IMG/VR virus record: IMGVR_UViG_2526164599_000005
Direction: 5' to 3' (one strand)
DNA from: a virus
Taxonomy: Duplodnaviria; Heunggongvirae; Uroviricota; Caudoviricetes
DNA length: 12,701 nucleotides
Shown here: in pieces, positions 1 to 12,701 of the stretch
Layout of the letters: each line of letters begins with the position of its first letter
Position numbering within the stretch: the stretch's first letter is position 1
The notes under the pieces: generated by a model
What the model saw: the letters and a program-made list of their open reading frames with translations, nothing else
The model's database searches: none
Told to the model about the DNA's origin: nothing
Program-made: the position numbers and the translations under genes

Positions 1-294
1 CTTTAAGGAGTTCATTTTCCAACGTTTTTTGCCGAGCAGGCGCTGGAGTTCTTTAATCTGCTTCATGGCAGCAGCAAGTTCAGAGGCAGGAACGACCTGC
101 TCTCCTGCGGCCACAGCAGTAAGACTTCCCTCCTGGTATTGCTTGCGCCAGAGAAATAACTGGCTGGCTGCCACACCGTGTTGCCGGGCAACAAGGGAGA
201 CCGTCATTCCCGGTTCAAAACTCTGCTGAACAATAGCGATCTTTTCCTGTGTAGTACGCCGTCTGCGTTTCTCCGGTCCTAAGACATCAATCAT
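1..294 (-). CDS. insC: IS2 transposase OrfA (InsC), 3' end outside window; apparent 1-nt frameshift in the A-run at 25-30
   Basis: Minus-strand translation from ATG (plus 292-294): [90 protein letters not shown]..., matching InsC as I remember it. After GKK the conserved continuation (K)TLENELLK is only in the neighbouring frame. Confidence 0.8.
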
Positions 295-385
295 CTGCTC
301 TCCAATGACTAGTCTAAAAACTAGTATTAAGACTATCACTTATTTAAGTGATATTGGTTGTCTGGAGATTCAGGGGGCCAGTCTA
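1..385 (-). mobile_element. IS2 (IS3 family), partial; left end with terminal inverted repeat, remainder lies beyond the window start
   Basis: Reverse complement of 301-385 reads TAGACTGGCCCCCTGAATCTCCAGACAACCAATATCACTTAAATAAGTGATAGTCTTAATACTAGTTTTTAGACTAGTCATTGGA, which matches my recollection of the IS2 left end; insC follows directly. Terminus placed at 385. Confidence 0.8.
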
Positions 386-560
386 GTCAGCAATGAAATC
401 ACGCAGACCGTCAATAAGAAACTGGAAAACCAGAGTGCGGCAATTCAGCAGATACAGAAGGTTCAGGTTGATACAAATAATAACCTGAACAGCATGTGGG
501 CTGTGAAGCTGCAGCAGATGCAGGACGGACGCCTTTATATCGCGGGTATTGGTGCCGGTA
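386..560 (+). pseudogene. J: Internal fragment of phage host-specificity / central tail fibre gene J, isolated between two IS insertions
   Basis: Open frame VSNEITQTVNKKLENQSAAIQQIQKVQVDTNNNLNSMWAVKLQQMQDGRLYIAGIGAG; joins in frame to 3261-4032 once the IS66-family element and one TSD copy are removed. Confidence 0.65.
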
Positions 561-590
561 GTAAGCGGCTCGTCAGAACCGTATTGATAT

Positions 591-2164
591 TTACTGAGAG
601 CTCAGATCAACTTTCCAGGGCAACAGATCGCGTACCCGGTTTGCCGGCCAGTCCTGGATATGTTCAATGACGTAGCGCAGCCACTTTCTGGTCTCCACCA
701 TTGTTCAGACGGCATGTGCCGATCAGCGAGTACAACACCGCCGCATGTTCACCACCGCTGTCGGAACCCGCGAACATCCAGTTTTTCCGGCCTACGGCCA
801 CTCCCCGTAAGGCGTTCTCTGCGATGTTGTTGTCGATTTCCACCCAGCCATTACTGCAGTACACGTTCAGTGCATCCCACTGTTTCAGCAGGTATGCGAA
901 CGCTTTTGCCGTATCTGAGTGACGCGACAGTGTTTTCATCTGTTGCTGTATCCAGTCATACAGTGACTGCATCAGTGGCGCGGCTCTGGTTTTTCTTGCC
1001 GCCAGACGCTGTTCTGCTGAACAGCCCCGGACCTCTGCCTCGATGGCATACAGTTCACCGATACGCTGCAGGGCTTCCGTGGTGATGTCGGTGGGCGCTC
1101 TTGCATGCACATCGTGGATTTTTTCTCCGGGCATGAGCCATACACGCGGCTTCCGTTATTCTGCCGGATTCGTATAACGCCCGGTAACCACCGTAAGCAT
1201 CGGCCTGAAGCACACCGCTGTAACCGGCCAGGTGATTTTGTGGATGGATACCTTTCCGGTCCGGACTGTACGCGAACCAGACCGCCGGGGGCATCTGTGA
1301 ACCGGCGTTACGGTCATCACGGACGTAGACCCACAGCCGGGCTGTCCGGGTTTTACCGCTGCCCGGCTCCTGGACCGGGACGGGGATATCATCAGCATGG
1401 ACTTTACCGGGCATCAGCACATACTGGCGCAGGACGTCATACAGCGGCTCCAGTAGTTCAGCAACGGCACCTGTCCAGCGCCCCAGTGTGGCACGGCTCA
1501 GCTCCACACCCTGACGGCGGTATATCTCTGACTGGCGGTATAACGGCAGATGGTCTGCATATTTTCCGGTGACGACATGGGCCAGGAGCCCCGCTCCGGC
1601 ATAACTGCGTGCAATGGGTTTTGAAGGTACTGGTGCCTGCACGATATGGTCGCACCGACAACAGGCCAGTTTCGGACGTTGTGTTTCGATAACCTTAAAG
1701 GCGCTGCTGATAAGCTCCAGTTGCTCTGACACATCACATCCCAGAGAACTGAGTTCACCACCACAGGCAGGACAGCATTCCTCTTCCGGCCGGATAACCC
1801 GGGTTTCACGGGGAAGTGAGGCCGGTAACGGTTTACGGGCTGAAGACTGGCGCAGGGCGGATGGCAGTACCGGGTCATATTGCTCACCCAGCGTTTCCGC
1901 CATTTCTTCCTGAAGTGCGCTGATTCGCTCCTGTGCTTCCTGTATCTGCCGTTCGGTTTTTGCACGAAGTTTTTCTGAGCTTTTACCGAACTGCATACGT
2001 TGCAGTTTCGCAACCAGCGCCTTCAGCCGGTTGATTTCGGAAGCATAAGCCGCCACCCGCTGTGAGAGCAGGCGGTTGTATTCAGCCATCTGGCGTATGG
2101 TGTCCTGTTGCGTCTGCAACAGTGCCCGCAGGCGGGCGTTCTCATGAGCAAGTGAGGTGTCCAT
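591..2164 (-). CDS. tnpC: IS66-family transposase TnpC, reading frame broken by two single-nucleotide frameshifts (possibly pseudogene)
   Basis: ORF pieces 1055-2164 ([17 protein letters not shown]...MAHARRK) and 664-1134 (...[29 protein letters not shown]...[46 protein letters not shown]), plus a third-frame tail [35 protein letters not shown] ending at stop 591-593. Frame changes fall at T6 (1119-1124) and near 695-703. Confidence 0.85.
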
Positions 2165-2183
2165 ATCCTCACTTTACAACGGG

Positions 2184-2531
2184 TTATATGCGGATTCCAG
2201 CGCGTTCCGTTCGTTTCGGGTGCTTCCAGTTGATACCTTCAAGAAGCATGGATAACTGAGCCGGAGTAAGGTGCACCTTGCCGTCACGGGTGACTGGCCA
2301 GACGAAGCGGCCCCGCTCCAGGCGTTTGGTGAAGAGGCACAGTCCGTCACTGTCAGCCCACAACACTTTTATCTGGTCACCCCGGCGTCCGCGGAAGATG
2401 AACAGGTGTCCGGAGAACGGGTCATCCTTCAGGACGTTCTGAACTTTTGATGCCAGGCCGTTAAAGCCATTTCGCATATCGGTGATACCTGCAACCAGCC
2501 AGATACGCGAACCTGCAGGGAGAGATATCAT
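2184..2531 (-). CDS. tnpB: IS66-family TnpB (Orf2), intact
   Basis: 115-aa [96 protein letters not shown]... typical IS66 Orf2; its ATG overlaps the tnpA stop (ATGA overlap). Confidence 0.9.
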   Translation of the reverse strand: MISLPAGSRIWLVAGITDMRNGFNGLASKVQNVLKDDPFSGHLFIFRGRRGDQIKVLWADSDGLCLFTKRLERGRFVWPVTRDGKVHLTPAQLSMLLEGINWKHPKRTERAGIRI

Positions 2532-3207
2532 CAGTGGCTGCTCCCTTTTATTTCGCGGATAAGTGTCTGTAATAACGCCGGCGTCAGTTTACCTTTAAGC
2601 CTGAGAGTTCCGGCCGGCAGAACCAGCTCACAACACAGACTGTCGGACGGTGTATTTATCTGCTCTGGTTCCTGTGCGGGGGCCGGGATTTTATTATCCG
2701 GCTCCGGCGTTAACGTCACGGGAAGCAGTGCCGGCATATTTTTCCGGAAGGCAGCAGGCCACCTTTCCGGTATTGATGGCGCCAGTTGAAGAGCAGGTTA
2801 TCGTTGATTCCGTTTTCCCGGGCGATCTGCGCCACACAGGCTCCGGGCTGCAGTGACTGCTCCACTAAGGCGATTTTAAACTCATAAGGGAAGTTGGGCC
2901 GCCGGGGACGTTTTTTTACCACGGGGGCTTCGGATATAACGGTGCTTTCAGGACGTACGACTGGTACCGTGGAAAATTGTCCGTAAAGGCAGGCATCAAG
3001 TTCCTGCTCCGACATGCCTGCGGGCAAAGGCCACGAAAGGCCAGCTCTCCGAAAGCGCACGAACATACTACAAACTGTTGATTTTGGTACACCCAGGCGA
3101 CGCCCGGCCACAACCCGGGGTAAATGTTCTTCAAAGTGAAGACGTAAAGCTTCAGTGATCCAGGTCCGGTGTTTCATACGATAGTGTCCATTAAAAATGA
3201 TGGACAT
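2531..3207 (-). CDS. tnpA: IS66-family TnpA (Orf1) with one apparent frameshift and an unusually long N-terminal extension; start codon uncertain (3207 or 3177)
   Basis: ORF 2716-3207 contains the IS66 Orf1 HTH core [53 protein letters not shown]; ORF 2531-2737 gives the expected C-terminal part [11 protein letters not shown]...[29 protein letters not shown]. They are joined by a frame change at the T5 run 2739-2743. Confidence 0.7.
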
Positions 3208-3260
3208 TATTTTTGTAGAGCCGGAGGAAACAGACCAGACGGTTTAAATGAGCCGGTTAC

Positions 3261-4032
3261 TGCCGGTATTGAGAACACCCCTGACGGCATGCAGAGTCAG
3301 GTGCTGCTGGCGGCGGACAGGATTGCGATGGTTAATCCTGCGAATGGCAACACAAAACCGATGTTTGTTGGTCAGGGCGATCAGATATTCATGAACGACG
3401 TGTTCCTGAAACGCCTGACGGCCCCCACCATTACCAGCGGTGGAAATCCACCGGCATTTTCCCTGACTCCGGACGGAAAGCTGACCGCTAAAAATGCGGA
3501 TATCAGTGGCAGTGTGAATGCGAACGCCGGGACGCTCAACAATGTCACGGTAAATGAAAACTGTACGATTAAGGGCATGCTGGAGGCGACTCAGGTCAGA
3601 GGTGACTTCGTTAAAGCTGTATCCAAATCATTCCCGAAACAGGCTGGTACGTGGGGTAACACGGAAACACCAAACGGGACGGTTACAGTCACCATAAGCG
3701 ATGATCATAACTTTGACCGTCAAATCATTATTCCGCCCATTATCTTTAACGGAATAGCGTATAGCGATCCGGGAAGTGGTAATAACCCGGGAGGTACAAG
3801 ATACACGGGTTATGGTTTTGAAGTTCGCAAAAACGGTGTATTAATCGCATCCAGAGAAACTAAAGGGGCTATTCCCGGTAGCTACAGTGCGGTTATTGAT
3901 ATGCCGAGTGGCAGGGGAAGCGTCACTCTGGAGTTTAAGGTTTTCCATAAAGGCAATCAGTGGGCAGGTAATATCACCGACTGTACGGTGATTGTGACCA
4001 AAAAAGCCGCTTCCGGCATCAGTATTCGTTGA
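3261..4032 (+). pseudogene. J: C-terminal (receptor-binding) fragment of phage host-specificity protein J, severed from its 5' part by the IS insertions
   Basis: [86 protein letters not shown]...[10 protein letters not shown] resembles the lambda J C-terminus as I recall it; position directly upstream of lom fits. Confidence 0.85.
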
Positions 4033-4101: not shown

Positions 4102-4701
4102 ATGCGTAAACTTTATGCCGCCATTTTGTCCGCAGCCATTTGTCTGGCCGTATCCGGTGCGCCTGCATGGGCATCTGAACATCAGTCCACGCTGAGCGCG
4201 GGGTATCTTCATGCCTTGACGAACGTTCCCGGCAGCGATGATCTTAACGGGATTAACGTGAAATACCGTTATGAGTTTACGGACACACTGGGGCTGGTGA
4301 CGTCATTCAGCTATGCAGGAGACAAGAATCGCCAGCTTACCCGTTACAGCGATACCCGCTGGCATGAAGATTCAGTGCGTAACCGCTGGTTCAGCGTGAT
4401 GGCGGGGCCGTCTGTGCGCGTGAATGAATGGTTCAGCGCGTATGCGATGGCGGGTATGGCTTACAGCCGTGTTTCGACTTTCTCCGGGGATTATCTCCGC
4501 GTAACTGACAACAAGGGGAAAACGCACGACGTGCTGACCGGAAGTGATGACGGTCGCCACAGCAACACGTCTCTGGCGTGGGGGGCTGGCGTGCAGTTTA
4601 ACCCGACCGAATCCGTGGCCATTGATATTGCTTATGAAGGCTCCGGCAGTGGTGACTGGCGCACTGACGGTTTCATCGTGGGTGTCGGTTATAAATTCTG
4701 A
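4102..4701 (+). CDS. lom: Lom-family outer membrane protein (Ail/Lom/PagC/OmpX beta-barrel family)
   Basis: 199 aa with N-terminal signal peptide [24 protein letters not shown] and C-terminus [27 protein letters not shown] as in lambda Lom; SD GAGAGG 6 nt upstream; located between J and stf. Confidence 0.9.
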
Positions 4702-4754: not shown

Positions 4755-4765
4755 GTGGGGTGAAT

Positions 4766-7700
4766 ATGGCAGTAAAGATTTCAGGTGTACTGAAAGACGG
4801 CACAGGAAAACCGGTACAGAACTGCACAATCCAGCTGAAAGCAAAACGTAACAGCACCACGGTGGTGGTGAACACGCTGGCCTCAGAAAATCCGGATGAA
4901 GCCGGGCGTTACAGCATGGACGTTGAGTACGGTCAGTACAGCGTTATTCTGTTGGTGGAAGGCTTCCCGCCGTCACATGCCGGGACCATCACCGTGTATG
5001 AAGATTCCCGACCCGGTACGCTGAATGATTTTCTCGGTGCCATGACGGAGGATGATGCCCGTCCGGAGGCACTGCGCCGTTTTGAACTGATGGTGGAAGA
5101 GGTGGCGCGTAACGCGTCCGCAGTGGCACAGAACACGGCAGCCGCGAAGAAGTCAGCCAGTGATGCCAGCACATCTGCCCGTGAGGCGGCAACCCATGCA
5201 ACCGATGCTGCAGGCTCAGCACGTGCCGCCAGCACGTCAGCCGGACAGGCTGCATCATCTGCTCAGTCAGCATCTTCCAGCGCAGGAACGGCATCAACAA
5301 AGGCCAGTGAAGCATCGAAAAGTGCTGCTGCTGCAGAGTCCTCAAAAAGCGCGGCAGCTACCAGTGCCAGTGCCGCGAAAACGTCAGAAACGAATGCGGC
5401 AGCGTCACAAAAATCTGCAGCCACTTCTGCATCCGCCGCGACCACGAAGGCGTCAGAAGCTGCCACCTCAGCCCGGGATGCGGCGGCCTCAAAAGAGGCA
5501 GCGAAATCATCAGAAACGAACGCATCATCAAGCGCCAGTAGTGCAGCTTCCTCGGCAACGGCGGCAGGAAATTCCGCGAAGGCGGCAAAGACGTCTGAGA
5601 CAAACGCTAAGTCTTCTGAGACGGCAGCGGAACAGAGTGCCTCCGCAGCAGCAGACTCAAAAACAGCGGCTGCATCATCTGCCAGCGCCGCGTCAACAAG
5701 TGCCGGGCAGGCCTCAGCCAGTGCCACCGCCGCCGGAAAGTCGGCAGAAAGTGCCGCATCGTCTGCTTCAACAGCCACAACGAAGGCTGGCGAAGCCACT
5801 GAACAGGCCAGCGCAGCAGCGAGTTCTGCTTCCGCAGCGAAGACATCCGAAACGAACGCGAAAGCGTCGGAAACCCGTGCAGAATCCTCAAAAACGGCTG
5901 CCGCATCGTCAGCCAGTTCGGCGGCGTCATCGGCATCATCTGCGTCTGCTTCAAAAGATGAGGCGACCAGACAAGCGTCAGCAGCGAAGAGCAGCGCCAC
6001 GACGGCATCCACGAAGGCGACAGAGGCAGCTGGCAGTGCGACGGCGGCAGCACAGAGCAAAAGTACGGCGGAATCCGCGGCAACGCGCGCCGAGACAGCG
6101 GCAAAACGGGCAGAGGATATTGCATCCGCCGTGGCGCTTGAGGATGCGAGCACGACGAAAAAGGGGGTAGTACAGCTCAGCAGTGCGACCAACAGTACGT
6201 CTGAAACGCTGGCGGCAACGCCAAAGGCAGTAAAATCAGCCTATGACAATGCAGAGAAACGTCTGCAGAAAGACCAGAACGGCGCTGATATACCCGATAA
6301 GGGACACTTCCTGAACAACATTAACGCGGTCAGTAAAACAGACTTTGCTGATAAGCGCGGTATGCGTTATGTGCGGGTTAATGCTCCTGCAGGTGCAACA
6401 TCTGGAAAATATTACCCTGTTGTTGTTATGCGTTCTGCTGGCTCAGTAAGCGAACTGGCATCAAGGGTCATTATCACCACGGCAACGCGAACCGCAGGCG
6501 ATCCGATGAATAACTGCGAGTTTAACGGATTTGTTATGCCTGGTGGCTGGACTGACAGGGGGCGTTATGCTTATGGCATGTTCTGGCAATATCAAAACAA
6601 TGAACGAGCCATCCACTCAATAATGATGAGTAATAAGGGCGATGATTTGCGCTCTGTGTTCTATGTTGATGGCGCTGCTTTCCCTGTTTTTGCGTTTATC
6701 GAAGATGGCCTGTCAATATCCGCACCTGGTGCTGATCTCGTTGTTAATGATACGACCTATAAGTTTGGGGCAACAAATCCGGCGACTGAATGTATCGCGG
6801 CGGACGTTGTCCTTGATTTTAAGAGTGGGCGTGGTTTTTATGAGTCTCATTCGTTAATCGTTAACGATAACTTGTCGTGCAAAAAACTTTTTGCCACAGA
6901 CGAAATTGTAGCGCGTGGTGGTAATCAGATTCGAATGATAGGTGGGGAGTATGGTGCATTATGGCGTAATGATGGCGCTAAAACTTACCTGCTGCTTACC
7001 AATCAAGGTGATGTTTATGGTGGCTGGAATACATTAAGACCGTTTGCTATTGATAACGCAACCGGCGAACTGATTATTGGAACCAAACTGTCCGCAAGTC
7101 TGAACGGTAATGCATTAACAGCAACAAAGCTGCAAACGCCAAGACTGGTTTCTGGTGTTGAGTTTGATGGTTCCAAAGATATTACTTTAACCGCTGCGCA
7201 TGTGGCTGCTTTTGCCAGAAGGGCAACTGATACATATGCCGATGCGGATGGTGGCGTTCCCTGGAATGCCGAATCAGGCGCTTACAATGTCACCCGCTCT
7301 GGCGACAGCTATATTCTGGTTAACTTCTATACCGGAGTCGGAAGTTGCCGGACCCTGCAGATGAAGGCGCATTACAGAAATGGAGGTCTGTTCTACCGTT
7401 CCTCAAGAGATGGCTATGGTTTTGAGGAAGACTGGGCAGAAGTTTATACCTCGAAAAATCTTCCACCAGAAAGCTACCCAGTCGGCGCACCAATCCCGTG
7501 GCCATCAGATACCGTTCCGTCTGGCTATGCCCTGATGCAGGGGCAGACTTTTGACAAATCTGCATACCCGAAACTTGCAGTGGCTTATCCGTCAGGCGTT
7601 ATTCCTGATATGCGTGGCTGGACGATTAAGGGCAAACCTGCCAGTGGTCGTGCCGTATTGTCTCAGGAACAGGACGGCATTAAATCGCACACCCACAGCG

Positions 7701-8164
7701 CCAGCGCATCCAGTACGGATTTGGGTACGAAAACCACATCGTCGTTTGATTACGGCACTAAATCCACGAATAACACCGGGGCTCATACGCATAGTCTGAG
7801 CGGCTCTACAAGCTCGGCTGGAGCACACTCGCACGTTGATGGGCGCAGGTTTAATACAAGCACTTTTAAAGACACCTATCAGTATGGTTCTACAGCTGTC
7901 GGAAGTAACTCATACCAGGTACAAGGGGCGGTTGGTCTGGGCGTTGGTACGATGGCGAATACGAACTCTGCTGGCGCGCACACCCACTCACTGTCCGGCA
8001 CTGCTGCAAGCGCAGGCGCACACGCACATACTGTCGGTATTGGTGCACACACGCACTCCGTTGCGATTGGTTCACATGGACACACCATCACCGTTAACGC
8101 TGCTGGTAACGCGGAAAACACCGTCAAAAACATTGCATTTAACTATATTGTGAGGCTTGCATAA
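4766..8164 (+). CDS. stf: Side tail fibre protein Stf (lambda Stf / Rac StfR-like), 1132 aa from ATG 4766 (ORF track starts at GTG 4760)
   Basis: N-terminus [37 protein letters not shown] matches the lambda Stf N-terminus as I recall it; Ala/Ser/Thr-rich SETNA repeat region; C-terminal His-rich GAHTHS/GAHAHT motifs ending [18 protein letters not shown]; stop overlaps the tfa ATG (TAATG). Confidence 0.9.
5110..6200 (+). repeat. Coding low-complexity tandem repeat region in stf (Ala/Ser/Thr-rich, [15 protein letters not shown] fibre repeats)
   Basis: Protein residues about 115-480 are almost entirely A/S/T/K/E with recurring TSETNA, SSASAA and TKASEA units; GC-rich DNA with open frames on both strands. 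Confidence 0.6.
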
Positions 8165-8745
8165 TGGCATTCAGAATGAGTGAACAAGCACGGACCATAA
8201 AAATTTATAATCTGCTGGCCGGAACTAATGAATTTATTGGTGAAGGTGACGCATATATTCCGCCTCATACAGGTCTGCCAGCAAACAGTACCGATATTGC
8301 ACCGCCAGATATTCCAGCAGGCTTCGTGGCTGTTTTCAACAGTGATGAGGCATCGTGGCATCTTGTTGAAGACCATCGGGGTAAAACAGTTTATGACGTG
8401 GCATCAGGGGACGCGTTATTTATTTCTGAACTCGGCTCATTACCGGAAAATGTTACCTGGTTATCCCCGGAAGGGGAGTTTCAGAAGTGGAACGGCACAG
8501 CCTGGGTGAAGGATACGGAAGCAGAAAAACTGTTCCGGATCCGGGAGGCGGAAGAAACAAAAAACAGCCTGATGCAGGTAGCCAGTGAGCATATAGCGCC
8601 ACTTCAGGATGCTGTAGATCTGGAGATCGCAACGGAGGAAGAAAACTCGTTGCTGGAAGCCTGGAAGAAGTATCGGGTGTTGCTGAACCGTGTTAATACA
8701 ACAACTGCACCGGATATTGAATGGCCAGTAGCACCTATAGGGTAA
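8164..8745 (+). CDS. tfa: Tail fibre assembly protein Tfa
   Basis: 193 aa [91 protein letters not shown]... closely matches lambda Tfa as I recall it; translationally coupled to stf. Confidence 0.92.
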
Positions 8746-8827
8746 ATTCGTAATGATTACCTAAATACGTTATTCTTTTGCTCAAAAAGTGATTTTGCTA
8801 TAGGTAGAGAGTATGTTCTTGGATTAA

Positions 8828-8861
8828 GAATAAAAAATCGCCATGAAAGAGCTTCATGGCG
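8828..8861 (-). terminator. Candidate rho-independent terminator for a minus-strand transcript converging on tfa
   Basis: Plus strand has 9-bp stem CGCCATGAA (8839-8847), loop AGAGC, TTCATGGCG (8853-8861), preceded by TAAAAAAT (8831-8838); on the minus strand the hairpin is followed by ATTTTTTATTCTT. Confidence 0.45.
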
Positions 8862-9331
8862 AGTACATAAACGGTACAAAATATGATGAAAGTAGAGCGG
8901 CGTAAGCCACTATATTAAGATATGACAATAGCGAAGAAAAGTAAATAACATTTTATGGACGTTTAATTGTTAATTATAAAAACTAGAGTGCCCGATATTG
9001 TTTATCTTGCTTTAAAATAATGTACTCAAACCAAATTTTTGAGCTAAAAGCTCAAATAATATAAATGCAATGATAATGTTTAATAAGACAATTAGCTTGC
9101 TTTGTATTTTCATTTCGGAATACTGTTAAGTAACTTTGATGACCCTAACAATAGATCGGAATTTTCTTAGAGTCAATGGTCACTGTATTTGCTTGCAAAG
9201 CAAATGTTTTGGTGGTTATAAGTTTTCTTAATATAGTCACCTATGCAACTTGTTCCGTGTGGAGATTAAAGGTTAAAATTTAATGCGAAGATGGAATTAT
9301 ATTATATTTTTATAATTAATTTAACCTTAAC

Positions 9332-9432
9332 ATCGTTGCTGGCGGCATGGAAGAAATATCGGGTCTTGCTGATGTCGTGTTGGCACTTCCTTAGTGCCGG
9401 ATATCGAAAGGCCAGCTGTACCTGTGGGGTGA
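9332..9432 (+). repeat. Degenerate direct copy of the tfa 3' end (remnant 1, non-coding scar)
   Basis: ATCGTTGCTGGCGGCATGGAAGAAATATCGGGTCTTGCTGA...CCGGATATCGAAAGGCCAG...GGGGTGA aligns to tfa 8647-8745 (CTCGTTGCTGGAAGCCTGGAAGAAGTATCGGGTGTTGCTGA...CCGGATATTGAATGGCCAG...AGGGTAA). Roughly three-quarters identity by eye, with indels and an internal stop. Confidence 0.7.
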
Positions 9433-9564
9433 AAACTTTATATGGATGCTATTTTTATAATAGCTGGTAAAAACTGGCCGAACTGAAATTCACTGTTGAT
9501 AAAAAAGATGTGTTTGAGTGTATGTCATTGTTTTCTTAATGGAATCCACTAGAATACAGCGAAT

Positions 9565-9762
9565 TTAAGAAGGTGGATTTTTATTGGAATATAAACTACA
9601 ATAATGCTCAACTCGTTCGTAGAATTGTTTTTTCTTATTTCTTGGAATGCTAACTATTATATGCATTATGGGGGCGATACTTCCTGATAATTTACATGAT
9701 GCATACATTGAAGCAATAAATTCAATATCATTGTCATCAAAGTTAAAGCTTTCTCCGTTCAT
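9565..9762 (-). CDS. Hypothetical small protein (65 aa), unrecognised
   Basis: ORF MNGESFNFDDNDIEFIASMYASCKLSGSIAPIMHIIVSIPRNKKKQFYERVEHYCSLYSNKNPPS; minus-strand context TAAGGAATTGAAATG gives an AAGGA Shine-Dalgarno 6 nt before the ATG. AT-rich, so a chance ORF is possible. Confidence 0.3.
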   Translation of the reverse strand: MNGESFNFDDNDIEFIASMYASCKLSGSIAPIMHIIVSIPRNKKKQFYERVEHYCSLYSNKNPPS

Positions 9763-10087
9763 TTCAATTCCTTATGTGTTTGACACAACTGATGCTGTAT
9801 CCCATGAGAATTTATGCAAGTTGTTATGTTTGATTTGATATTGCAATGATAATTGTAGCTAATTGTTTTCAATTGAGTGAAAGTTTATTTCGAGTGATTA
9901 AGTCGAAAAAAAAGATTTCTCACGGTTAGTAAGCGTATTAGGTCAGTATTCAGATATGAATGGTATTAATGACTAAATTTTCAATCATATATGGATTTTT
10001 ATGCTGATGAAGGTGTTTTATTTGGCGATTCGTCAAGCATCTTCACTTAAGTAATCGTATATTTTAAGAGTGCAAAAGAGAAAGGGA

Positions 10088-10190
10088 CAACGTTGCTCGC
10101 ACTCTGGATTAAATATAGGGTATTGTTAAACTTCGTTGATACATAATTGTACCGGATATTGAGTGGTCTGAAGTCCCAGTCATTAAGTAA
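10088..10190 (+). repeat. Second, more diverged and AT-shifted direct copy of the tfa 3' end (remnant 2)
   Basis: ACGTTGCTCGCACTCTGGATTAAATATAGGGTATTGTTAAACTTCGTTGATACATAA...CCGGATATTGAGTGGTCTGAAGTCCCAGTCATTAAGTAA; translation TLLALWIKYRVLLNFVDT* / PDIEWSEVPVIK* parallels tfa [20 protein letters not shown] / [11 protein letters not shown]. Confidence 0.6.
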
Positions 10191-10538
10191 TTGTTTCGTG
10201 ATATGCTGCAGAAACGTTGTATGCAATAACGTTCTGCGGTTGGCTGGTGAACTTTCGATAGTGCGGGTATTGAATGATTTCCAGCCGTTACCGATTTTAT
10301 ATAACTGCAGTGGAATTATTCAACACACAGGCAAAACGGAATAAGCTGAGAAAAAAGCGTGCTTTCCCAATCTGGGGCAAATCACTTCTGAATGACACCT
10401 GAAAACAGGTGGTGGACTCAAGAAGGCTTGGAATATTCTTCTTTAATGTTATGTAATTCATTGATTTTTCGTGTACGATTTTAAGACATTTATTCCAAGA
10501 AAAATTTTTAACTCTTTGATTTTTCGACTCTGTATCAT

Positions 10539-10600
10539 CGGTCTCGAAAACCGGAGTAGGGGCAACTCTACCGGGGGTTCAAATCCCCCTCTCTCCGCCA
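10539..10600 (+). other. 3' fragment (about 62 nt, anticodon stem to CCA) of tRNA-Ser(CGA); attR-type core repeat, not a functional tRNA
   Basis: CGGTCTCGAAAACCGGAGTAGGGGCAACTCTACCGGGGGTTCAAATCCCCCTCTCTCCGCCA matches the 3' part of E. coli serU as I recall it (anticodon loop CTCGAAA, long variable arm, T-arm GGGGGTTCAAATCCCCC). No complementary 5' acceptor strand upstream. Confidence 0.75.
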
Positions 10601-11184
10601 CTTTATCAATGACTTATCTCCCGACTTCCCGCCTTGCTTTTCCTAAACAGAACAATCGTAGAATATTCTTGAAGGGTTAGATCGTCACTGTTTTCTGTTC
10701 GATACTGTGACATTCAGCACTTGATTCACTATGGATCTGACAGGAAGGTTTTGAGCGAAAATTTGCAGTTATTCAGTCGTTTTCTTATCGGTCACCATTA
10801 TTCTTTTAGACATTGATCCTACAAAGCTGCCGCAAAGTTGGTGGTGGGAACTGAAGTTGCGTAGAGAAGGGGTCAATACCCGGAGGCAAACATGGGCTGG
10901 CAAAAGTGTAGCGGTATTAGGCGCAGCTATTTAGCCTAGTTATGTTTTATGAAAACTTGATATCATATAAGTGTCTTACTTATTGGCTGTAAATAAGTTT
11001 TTCCTAAGGAATTGTTTCTTGAGTATCATTTGTAACTGTAACGGAATTTATAATCCTTTGCTTTATTGTTACGGTATTTTTTATCACACCCTATTTTTTA
11101 TGTGGTTTTTTATACTGAAGTTTGGCAAAGTGAACTTTATATGCATATACTTCATCCTGGTTTCAGTTAAGTTGGGTGGATGAT

Positions 11185-11928
11185 ATGGCAACTACATGTT
11201 CAGTTATATTGATTTTGGAGTCCTTTGATGTTTATTTCGGAAAAGAGAGTGTGTTTCTAGAGAAAGGTTCATCTGTACTTGTCGACTCTAGCTCTAGAGA
11301 TTTTTTCCTGACATATCCTGAAAGAGTGATAGTGGCGGATTTTGGCGCTGAGTTTATTAGTCGCTATTTGAAAGCTAATAACTTAAGGGATATTTCTGAT
11401 TGTAGGGAATATCCATCTTATTTAAAAATAAACTTTGCTGACTTCAGTTTAATTAAAGGATTAATTAGTTGGGCTAATCACTGTGCTGAATACATAGAAA
11501 TTTTTGATGAGTCTATTGCTTTTACATGTCTCTCTGCATTTTCTTCTGAAAAACAATTTGGAGTATTTCTGTTTGAATGTTTGAAAAGCACAGAGGCTAA
11601 AGTTAAAACGATTATTCATACGGATTTATCTGCACCATGGCGTCTTAAGGATATATCATCAAGATTATATCTCAGCGAAAGTTTACTAAAGAGGAAATTG
11701 AAAGAAGAGGGGGTATCATTCAGTAAGATCATACTTGATGAGAGGATGCAAATGGCTGAATATTTACTCAGCACTCGTTGTTATCCTATTAGTAAAGTAG
11801 CTAAGGTCTGTGGTTATGCCAGTGTCTCATACTTTACTTATGTATTTAGACGTTATTTTGGTGTTTCTCCAAGTCAATACTCTCAGAGGAGTTCAGAAAG
11901 TAAAATTCTTACTCACCAGGGAATCTGA
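11185..11928 (+). CDS. AraC/XylS-family transcriptional regulator, YdeO/AppY/EnvY-like (horizontally acquired type); 247 aa from ATG 11185 (ORF track starts at GTG 11176)
   Basis: C-terminal dual-HTH region WRLKDISSRLYLSESLLKRKLKEEGVSFSKIILDERMQMAEYLLSTRCYPISKVAKVCGYASVSYFTYVFRRYFGVSPSQY resembles YdeO/AppY as I recall them; N-terminus TCSVILILESFD resembles their CSV(V/I)FI motif; GGTGGA SD-like sequence 4 nt upstream; very AT-rich. Confidence 0.85.
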   Translation: MATTCSVILILESFDVYFGKESVFLEKGSSVLVDSSSRDFFLTYPERVIVADFGAEFISRYLKANNLRDISDCREYPSYLKINFADFSLIKGLISWANHCAEYIEIFDESIAFTCLSAFSSEKQFGVFLFECLKSTEAKVKTIIHTDLSAPWRLKDISSRLYLSESLLKRKLKEEGVSFSKIILDERMQMAEYLLSTRCYPISKVAKVCGYASVSYFTYVFRRYFGVSPSQYSQRSSESKILTHQGI

Positions 11929-12422
11929 TCATTGTTCTTGCCCCCTTATTTCCAGACAGGGGGTGTATCTTAAGTTAACGTTACCCGCTGACGTCGATAT
12001 TCTCGCGGAGAGCGATAACCCAACGCACTGTGCGGATGGTTTTCATTGTAATGATCGATCGCCACTGCAAGATTATGCAATGCCGTTCTTACATTCGGTT
12101 TCGGCATGAACGCGATGTAGTCTTCCTTCATCGTTTTCACGAACCTTTCTGCCATTCCATTACTCTGAGGACTGCTGATTGCCGTTGTGCAGGGCTCCAG
12201 ATTCAACTCTCTGGCGAACTGCCATGTTTCATGCGCTCTATACGCTGAACCGTTATCTGTCAGCCACTGGATGGACTGTTCCGGTACTTTATCGCCAAAG
12301 CGTTTTTCTATCGCTCCTAACATGACATCCTGCACTGTCGCTTTATCGTAACCTCCCGTGCTTGCGGCCCAGTCTATGGCTTCACGATCGCAACAGTCCA
12401 GGGCGAACGTAACACGCAGTTT
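11929..12422 (-). mobile_element. Remnant of an IS2-like element (right end plus 3' part of insD), 5'-truncated by another IS
   Basis: 11929-11975 resembles the IS2 right terminal region (…TTGCCCCC…ATTTCCAGACA…CTTAAG…CCCGCTG…); contains the insD-like C-terminal ORF. Terminus is within about 5 nt of the regulator stop codon. Confidence 0.7.
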
Positions 12423-12437
12423 TGAATCGCCACGGGT
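11970..12437 (-). pseudogene. IS2-like transposase OrfB (InsD-like, integrase core), C-terminal fragment only
   Basis: Minus-strand translation ...[108 protein letters not shown]...[14 protein letters not shown] parallels IS2 InsD (...[42 protein letters not shown]...). An upstream in-frame stop at 12438-12440 shows the N-terminal two-thirds are missing. Confidence 0.75.
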
Positions 12438-12701
12438 TTAACAGACACCTCAGAGTCATTTAAGATGGCTTAAAGAGAGGTGCCCATGAGCGGTAAGCGT
12501 TATCCCGAAGAGTTTAAAACTGAAGCAGTCAAACAGGTTGTTGATCGCGGTTATTCTGTTGCCAGCGTTGCAACACGTCTCGATATCACCACCCACAGCC
12601 TTTATGCCTGGATAAAGAAGTACGGTCCGGATTACTCCACTTTTTCATCAAGCCAATCCGCCCACCACTGCATCATTTCTCTGCGCTTATCGAGATACTG
12701 A
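12423..12701 (+). mobile_element. Left end of a different IS3-family element (terminal TGA..., then orfA); extent to the right uncertain
   Basis: Begins TGAATCGCCACGGGTTTAACAGACACCTCAGAG exactly where insD-like homology stops; followed by an SD (AGAGAGG) and an IS3-type OrfA. Confidence 0.5.
12486..12701 (+). CDS. IS3-family transposase OrfA (HTH), probably truncated or disrupted after about residue 50
   Basis: MSGKRYPEEFKTEAVKQVVDRGYSVASVATRLDITTHSLYAWIKKYGPD is a typical IS3-family OrfA N-terminus; the following residues (YSTFSSSQSAHHCIISLRLSRY*) lack the usual leucine-zipper character. Confidence 0.6.
   Translation: MSGKRYPEEFKTEAVKQVVDRGYSVASVATRLDITTHSLYAWIKKYGPDYSTFSSSQSAHHCIISLRLSRY

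Follow-up and report, generated by a model that had tools for sequence, protein, structure and literature searches.

A probable serU attR fossil carried with patE inside lambdoid prophages and phages that use other attachment sites

The window analysed here, a stretch of 12,701 nucleotides from a tailed virus (IMG/VR record IMGVR_UViG_2526164599_000005), covers the right-hand portion of a lambdoid prophage. Downstream of its tail fibre genes stf and tfa, and on the plus strand, lies a 62-nt fragment of the Escherichia coli tRNA gene serU. We conclude, with a probability of about 0.85, that this fragment is a fossil attR which, together with captured host DNA, travels as a passenger inside a phage that uses another attachment site, and that the arrangement arose through repeated exchange of the integration module. 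It is a relic without a demonstrated present function. The first-pass annotation of the window had recognised the origin of the fragment in a serU-type attR, and in this it was right. On the other hand, its placement of the prophage boundary at the fragment, the tRNA and integrase that it expected at the left end, and the status that it gave to the AraC-family gene and IS remnants on the right did not stand up to comparison with related prophages and phage genomes.

A partial tRNA gene beside tail fibre genes is a common cue for calling the end of a prophage. If the fragment were taken as the end here, the boundary would be off by about 2.4 kb and the regulator gene patE would be left outside the phage by mistake. 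Of 5426 complete E. coli genomes, 524 (about 10%) present the same trap. Relics of this kind are known and ordinary; judging from a light check of the literature, this particular one seems not to have been pointed out before.

Organization of the window

The features of the window are listed in Table 1. The order J-lom-stf-tfa and its orientation toward the fragment were correctly described at first pass, but J is present only as a truncated, IS-interrupted remnant, and the 1134-aa ORF, to which that order would assign the role of J, is stf. The N-terminal half of the stf product is long, repetitive and rich in Ala, Ser and Thr.

The insertion in J is delimited by collinearity with the comparison locus L007, where window positions 386-560 correspond to 3001-3175 and the sequence from 3261 onward corresponds to 3168 onward, giving an overlap of 8 bp. 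The IS66-type tnpA, tnpB and tnpC genes were assigned by inspecting ORF translations, and tnpC is frameshifted. Since J is broken twice, by the IS66 insertion and by the IS3 end that abuts it at 386, the prophage is probably defective for its tail tip. No genome in the collection covers at least 80% of the window in one place, because of the IS insertions in J.

Table 1. Features of the 12,701-nt window. Loci with the prefix L are the comparison sequences used in this work.
Feature	Position	Strand	Remarks
IS3-family element end	1-385		Abuts J at 386
J piece	386-560		Collinear with L007
IS66-family element in J, 2.7 kb	561..3260	-	8-bp target duplication, 553-560 / 3261-3268
Tail tip gene J, C-terminal part	3261..4032	+	Pfam Ig_GpJ_C, Phage_Tail_Tip; collinear with L007 J from 3168
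lom	4102..4701	+	Pfam Ail_Lom, E = 9e-120
stf, side tail fibre, 1134-aa ORF (not J)	4760..8164	+	Collinear with 'prophage tail fiber N-terminal domain-containing protein' in L001 and L007
tfa, tail fibre assembly	8164..8745	+	Pfam Caudo_TAP, E = 3e-43; same annotation in relatives
AT-rich stretch, no gene identified	8746-10538		One short hypothetical ORF annotated in one relative
Left arm, P-arm-like, of the serU-type attP of lambdoid phages	10203..10538	+	Matches SCU-105 attR arm
serU' relic	10539..10600	+	Chromosomal (B') version; 62/62 against K-12 serU; no tRNA call
E. coli chromosomal DNA directly downstream of serU, 278 bp, probably captured	10601..10878	+	96-98% identity to serU flank
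AT-rich patE upstream region, from the novel joint	10879..11184	+	GC about 33%
patE-type AraC/XylS-family regulator, 247 aa	11185..11928	+	Pfam HTH_AraC, HTH_18
Partial IS3-family element, ISEc48-like, integrase-core remnant	11933..12406	-	Pfam rve_3, rve on ORF 11970-12335
Second IS fragment, N-terminal transposase piece	12486..12632	+	Counterpart L001 16187-16333, annotated 'transposase, incomplete'
IntS-type integrase gene, 3' stub	12632..12701	-	Continues 14 nt beyond window end; relatives keep last 27 codons and stop

In the spacer between tfa and the fragment two minor observations were made. The Rfam family IS009 gave a full-score match in the 3' part of tfa (8507-8705, 225.6 bits) and weak matches at 9317-9392 and 9957-10148, which suggests that decayed copies of the tfa 3' end lie between tfa and the serU arm. 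In addition, the window and the OkiPb strains share a stretch of 1,020 bp (9324-10343) that is missing from Res13, 181.1 and the phages ev099, mEp332 and PhiR70_1, all of which resume at 10344; it is an indel within the AT-rich spacer.

The fragment is the chromosomal half of a serU attachment site

Positions 10539-10600 of the window (CGGTCTCGAAAACCGGAGTAGGGGCAACTCTACCGGGGGTTCAAATCCCCCTCTCTCCGCCA) match nt 29-90 of K-12 serU, which encodes tRNA-Ser(CGA) (L003 3030..2969), without a single difference (62/62), and a chance match of this quality is impossible. The fragment begins at the second base of the anticodon stem and ends with the terminal CCA, so that four of the five bases of the left anticodon-stem arm are kept along with everything to their right. 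The 28 bases upstream of 10539 do not match the 5' half of the serU tRNA, and ARAGORN called no tRNA in the whole window. The exact coordinates and extent of the 3' portion, the lack of a 5' half next to it and the expectation that no complete tRNA would be called had all been given correctly in the first-pass annotation. Two sub-threshold Rfam matches on the fragment were dismissed as echoes of the tRNA T arm, one to Plastid-psbl-rps4 antisense (40.9 bits against a gathering score of 68) and the other to tmRNA over 18 nt.

serU is a recognised prophage site (PMC7067040), and genuine serU prophages served as the reference for an attR at this locus. In strain SCU-105 the left end of such a prophage, at the true serU locus, consists of mtfA, an intact tRNA-Ser(CGA) gene and an integrase gene, and its right end of J-lom-stf-tfa, an arm like window 10203-10538, the 62-nt fragment, the serU flank and zinT. 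Phage SerU-LTIIb (KU052038.1) likewise has a 62-nt pseudo-tRNA-Ser annotated at its end in GenBank, followed by yodB. Window positions 10203-10878 are 97.6% identical to the attR region of the SCU-105 prophage (L002 11906-12579), the left arm (10203-10538) being the phage arm of bona fide serU attR sites. Its part from 10344 to 10538 is common to all lambdoid carriers, and the sequence from 10344 onward is present in Res13, 181.1, ev099, mEp332 and PhiR70_1. The match of arm, 62 nt and 278-bp flank to the attR of a serU prophage, with intact serU and an integrase at the opposite end in SCU-105, identifies the fragment as an integrase footprint and upholds the proposal of a tyrosine integrase acting on a tRNA gene.

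The variable arm of the tRNA gene distinguishes the two partners of the crossover. The window, K-12 and the SCU-105 attR have the chromosomal form (GTAGGGG...CTCTAC), whereas the SCU-105 attL has the phage-borne form (GTGGGGG...CTCCAC). From this split the crossover can be placed between tRNA nt 29 and 47, in the anticodon stem-loop, and the chromosomal bases in the window identify its copy as the displaced host half, as an attR would have. We also note that serU as restored by the phage at the SCU-105 attL (L013 13219-13308) carries a compensatory change of a stem pair in the variable arm (A>G, T>C) and is still called tRNA-Ser(CGA), so that lysogens express a slightly different tRNA.

The 278 bp that follow the fragment match a serU flank present in essentially all of 5426 E. 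coli genomes, K-12 included. In the window the homology to the serU locus stops after 10878 (TCAATA|CCCGG), whereas K-12 and SCU-105 stay collinear to 509 bp. Fragment and flank thus form a 340-bp block of host DNA that carries no host gene. Beyond it come patE, IS pieces and the IntS stub, and the chromosome does not continue. Compared with the canonical serU attR of SerU-LTIIb and SCU-105, the window has the same 62-nt fragment, the upstream phage arm and the first 278 bp of host flank. In contrast to these prophages, where the flank runs on into yodB or zinT and the partner repeat is the intact serU beside the integrase, the flank in the window breaks off at 278 bp, where the patE region begins, and other att sites probably delimit the prophage. 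A scan of the plus strand from 10600 to 11180 found no serU terminator-like site, and no insulating function is therefore claimed for the segment.

The prophage boundary probably lies beyond the fragment

OkiPb01701 is the closest relative of the right half of the window, with 99.7% identity over 10201-12701. In this genome the block is found between tfa and ybhB-bioA, and the other end of the prophage reads ybhC - GCTTTTTTATACTAA - lambda-like int - xis. No tRNA was found at this left end, contrary to the intact tRNA and integrase predicted there at first pass. The prophages of OkiPb01701, Res13, 181.1, A14 and 1332KP all lie between ybhC and ybhB with lambda-type att sites as their ends; the block is followed by the lambda P-arm, the core (G/A)CTTTTTTATACTAA and ybhB-bioA, and the opposite end is ybhC - core - int - xis, with no tRNA. 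For OkiPb01701, Res13 and 181.1 the sequence was followed from the IS fragments through a P-arm matching that of lambda-family phages and the core (ACTTTTTTATACTAA or GCTTTTTTATACTAA) to the right flank of K-12 attB; the core is present at both ends, with int/xis, in OkiPb01701, and at attR in 181.1 and Res13. The same arrangement occurs in 90 genomes, and two further ones that were sampled, A14 and 1332KP, show it too. The empty site that corresponds to the prophage of these relatives is K-12 attB-lambda between ybhC and ybhB, and not serU. The fragment, for which the role of right boundary had been claimed, lies about 2.4 kb inside the lambda att limits of these prophages, and it belongs to a longer duplicated segment that comprises the arm, the 62 nt and 278 bp of serU flank. 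The missing tRNA partner at the other end and the duplication of a longer segment are the two outcomes that the first-pass annotation had itself named as refuting its reading.

As the expected core would fall about 225 bp past the last base of the window, the chromosomal position of the window is taken from the relatives by collinearity. On this comparison the working attR of the window is most probably lambda-type, its core falling near the equivalent of position 12925, about 2.39 kb rightward of the first base of the fragment. Its host may instead be of the argW/IntS type, like strain 673, but the window keeps an ISEc48 piece that is absent in strain 673, and its closest matches are the lambda-site relatives.

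The block is also found in free phage genomes. Phage ev099 (47.2 kb) carries J, lom, stf, tfa, serU' (the exact 62-mer), the AraC gene, the IS pieces, the attP core with the lambda P' arm, int and xis. In mEp332 and PhiR70_1, window 10344-12701 recurs at 99.2-99.6% identity with the P arm directly after it. All three count as packaged genomes by their status in the phage database. On this evidence the AraC gene and the IS remnants belong to the cargo of the phage, in a b-region position, and not to the chromosome or a separate island. The first reading of them as chromosome or an adjacent island is likewise contradicted by the relatives, in which they lie inside the lambda att limits. patE is thus packaged and spread by phages recovered as free genomes. 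As the block is internal to present-day phages at lambda attB, thrW and argW, the functional right boundary in the window is not the fragment.

Cargo to the right of the serU segment

The AraC-family protein of the window is identical to ECs_0287 of the Sakai prophage Sp1 at 244 of 247 positions (99%), and a promoter-like site (match 10/12) is located upstream of its gene at 11122-11151. [quoted passage not shown] From that work and from the position of the gene in Sp1/OI-8 we infer that ECs_0287 is Z0321/PatE. When the GTDB species representatives were scanned for a chromosomal source of patE, only distant AraC proteins of Paenibacillus were returned. The Sakai counterpart of the IS piece that follows patE is annotated as 'ISEc48 Family: IS3 partial', and after the end of this piece (12406) the carriers of the thrW type diverge from the window.

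The stub at the right end of the window translates to IYNHAQYLDKRREMMQWWADWLDEKVE followed by a stop, which is the C-terminus of IntS. Window 12422-12701 is 100% identical to a segment of strain 673 (L020 8596-8875) that runs into a full-length intS beside argW, and in the lambda-site relatives an 84-nt IntS stub directly adjoins the lambda P arm. The identity of the stub to the end of the strain 673 intS, together with the adjacent lambda P arm, indicates that a lambda attP-int-xis segment has replaced most of an IntS-type module. The 2.4 kb interval between tfa and attP thus holds relics of three integration systems in a row (serU-type attR, IntS stub and lambda attP), and is a compact record of lambdoid integration-module swapping and host DNA pickup.

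A search for the lambda core in the window gave a single match with two mismatches, at 11104-11118 just upstream of patE (GGTTTTTTATACTGA followed by AGTTTGGCA), and it was rejected as a core. Local alignment of this region with the ev099 attP reached a score of 30, whereas shuffled sequences averaged 21.3 and went up to 31. The match is probably due to chance in AT-rich DNA; it looks like a lambda att core with the beginning of the P' arm, and may be a degenerate att relic.

Distribution among E. coli genomes

A chimeric query, composed of intact serU, the window flank and the AraC gene, was compared with 5426 complete E. coli genomes. None of them had patE attached to an intact serU, and the truncated serU-patE joint was present in 524 (about 10%). 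Genomic context was inspected for about a dozen of these 524 carriers, and comprised lambda, thrW and argW sites; the serU locus was the context in 0 of the roughly 12 inspected, and the fragment was internal in every arrangement found.

A second left arm, e14-like and with pinE and a GIY-YIG gene (the ECE228 type), is joined to the relic and the 278-bp flank in about 414 genomes. Carriers of this arm at thrW are ECE228, CEC13091, Sakai Sp1 and Ceylon31, with the block internal in each. In ECE228 the real thrW' attR is located 277 bp to the right of the block, and in Ceylon31 the arm and pinE are present with different cargo replacing the GIY-YIG gene. The lambdoid arm is found at the thrW/yagP site in CD45, after nle effector genes. 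In strain 673 a complete lambdoid prophage is inserted at argW, and the block abuts the full-length intS.

In Sakai Sp1 (CP-933H / OI-8 of EDL933) the order serU' (L012 12458) - 278 bp - ECs_0287 - partial ISEc48 is the same as in the window, and the serU'-patE block is within the annotated limits of Sp1. Unlike the window, Sp1 is a deleted e14-like/lambda-like remnant at thrW, has the left arm with pinE and the GIY-YIG gene, and has neither the distal IS fragment nor the IntS stub.

Origin of the relic

The history that we favour would have begun with the integration of a lambdoid phage into serU, by a tyrosine-integrase crossover in the anticodon stem-loop that displaced the chromosomal 3' part of serU to the right end of the prophage. 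This right end (arm, serU 3' part and 278 bp of host DNA) would then have been captured into a phage genome, by imprecise excision or other illegitimate recombination of the lambda-bio type, and in this step the block would have become joined to its cargo (patE and pieces of IS elements) in the b-region, which lies between the tail-fibre genes and attP. Subsequently the integration module would have been exchanged at least twice, leaving first the IntS-type stub and finally the lambda-type attP-int-xis. Today the block is passenger DNA in phages integrating at lambda attB (ybhC/ybhB-bio), thrW or argW. We infer the mode of capture from the anatomy of the junction, and the order of the module swaps is a reconstruction of the same kind.

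The lambda bio and gal specialised transducing phages provide a precedent, since they capture host DNA next to att by imprecise excision. Like them, the window has host DNA contiguous with an attR-type junction, in the b-region/att position, and an abrupt novel joint. It differs from them in that the host DNA is just 340 bp without a host gene, that other integration modules have been acquired since, and that the capture event is read from the junction. Another parallel is found in the ends of K-12 cryptic prophages, which are marked by pseudo-tRNA fragments such as ptwF at CP4-6. These are also 3' tRNA fragments left by integrase-mediated integration; they are situated at the boundary between prophage and chromosome by their own tRNA locus, whereas the fragment in the window is internal and away from serU.

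The two left arms raise the question of whether the relic could still be active, either as a secondary att site or as a 340-bp homology patch at which phages specific for serU swap right ends; activity of this kind would account for the movement of the patE block between unrelated phage families. The right joint (278 bp | patE) has a single origin, with the same breakpoint and 99.2% identity between the types, and it is combined with two unrelated arms, both of which are found at genuine serU attR sites (the lambdoid arm in SCU-105, the e14-like arm in MB15). Identity to the tRNA begins at nt 29 with the lambdoid arm and at nt 25, or at nt 20 with one mismatch, with the e14-like GIY-YIG arm, and the relic retains most of the left anticodon-stem arm (4/5 bases) and all that lies to its right. 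However, the pattern would look no different if the block had been captured twice, independently, from an unsampled chromosome in which patE lay downstream of serU, and the SNPs in the 340-bp block across carriers are too few to locate an exchange point. The two-arm pattern is accounted for either by the serU segment as exchange point (through an integrase at the core, or through homologous recombination within the 340 bp) or by two captures. Present activity is on balance unlikely, and it is equally doubtful, going by these comparisons of arms and joints, that the relic would act as a portable, recombination-competent serU att site which grafts the patE block onto unrelated phages or nests incoming phages. 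If it did, fossil att sites would be a vehicle for the exchange of cargo between phage families.

A chromosomal rearrangement, in which a serU prophage recombined with one at another locus, the attR end was thereby moved within one chromosome and the block is in no phage genome, is very improbable. Recombination between prophages is reported to be common in E. coli, serU included (PMC7067040), and the block is flanked by IS fragments. Yet merely 278 bp of serU flank were moved and no chromosomal segment, the identical joint is present in 524 genomes with the sampled carriers at three different loci, and three sequenced phage genomes have the joint in the b-region next to attP. Hardly tenable at all is the reading of the fragment as the working attR of a serU prophage, with intact serU and the integrase far to the left and the AraC gene and IS pieces as chromosome or island: the arm, the fragment and the first 278 bp do look like a serU attR, J-lom-stf-tfa are oriented toward it and the flanks of the window are outside view, but the serU-locus homology is gone after 278 bp, the DNA that follows is 99.3-99.7% identical to blocks inside lambda-site prophages and free phage genomes, and the counts of intact serU-patE joints (0/5426) and of serU contexts (0 of about 12 inspected) are both nil.

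Variable DNA upstream of the serU arm

The slot that directly precedes the serU arm was occupied by different genes in the three prophages compared. In Ceylon31 it contains two large hypothetical genes and an IS4 piece (L015 1202-4631), in CD45 the effector genes nleB2/nleC/nleH/nleF (L025 254-3411), and in SCU-105 a manganese catalase/ferritin-like/general stress cluster (L002 9229-11442).
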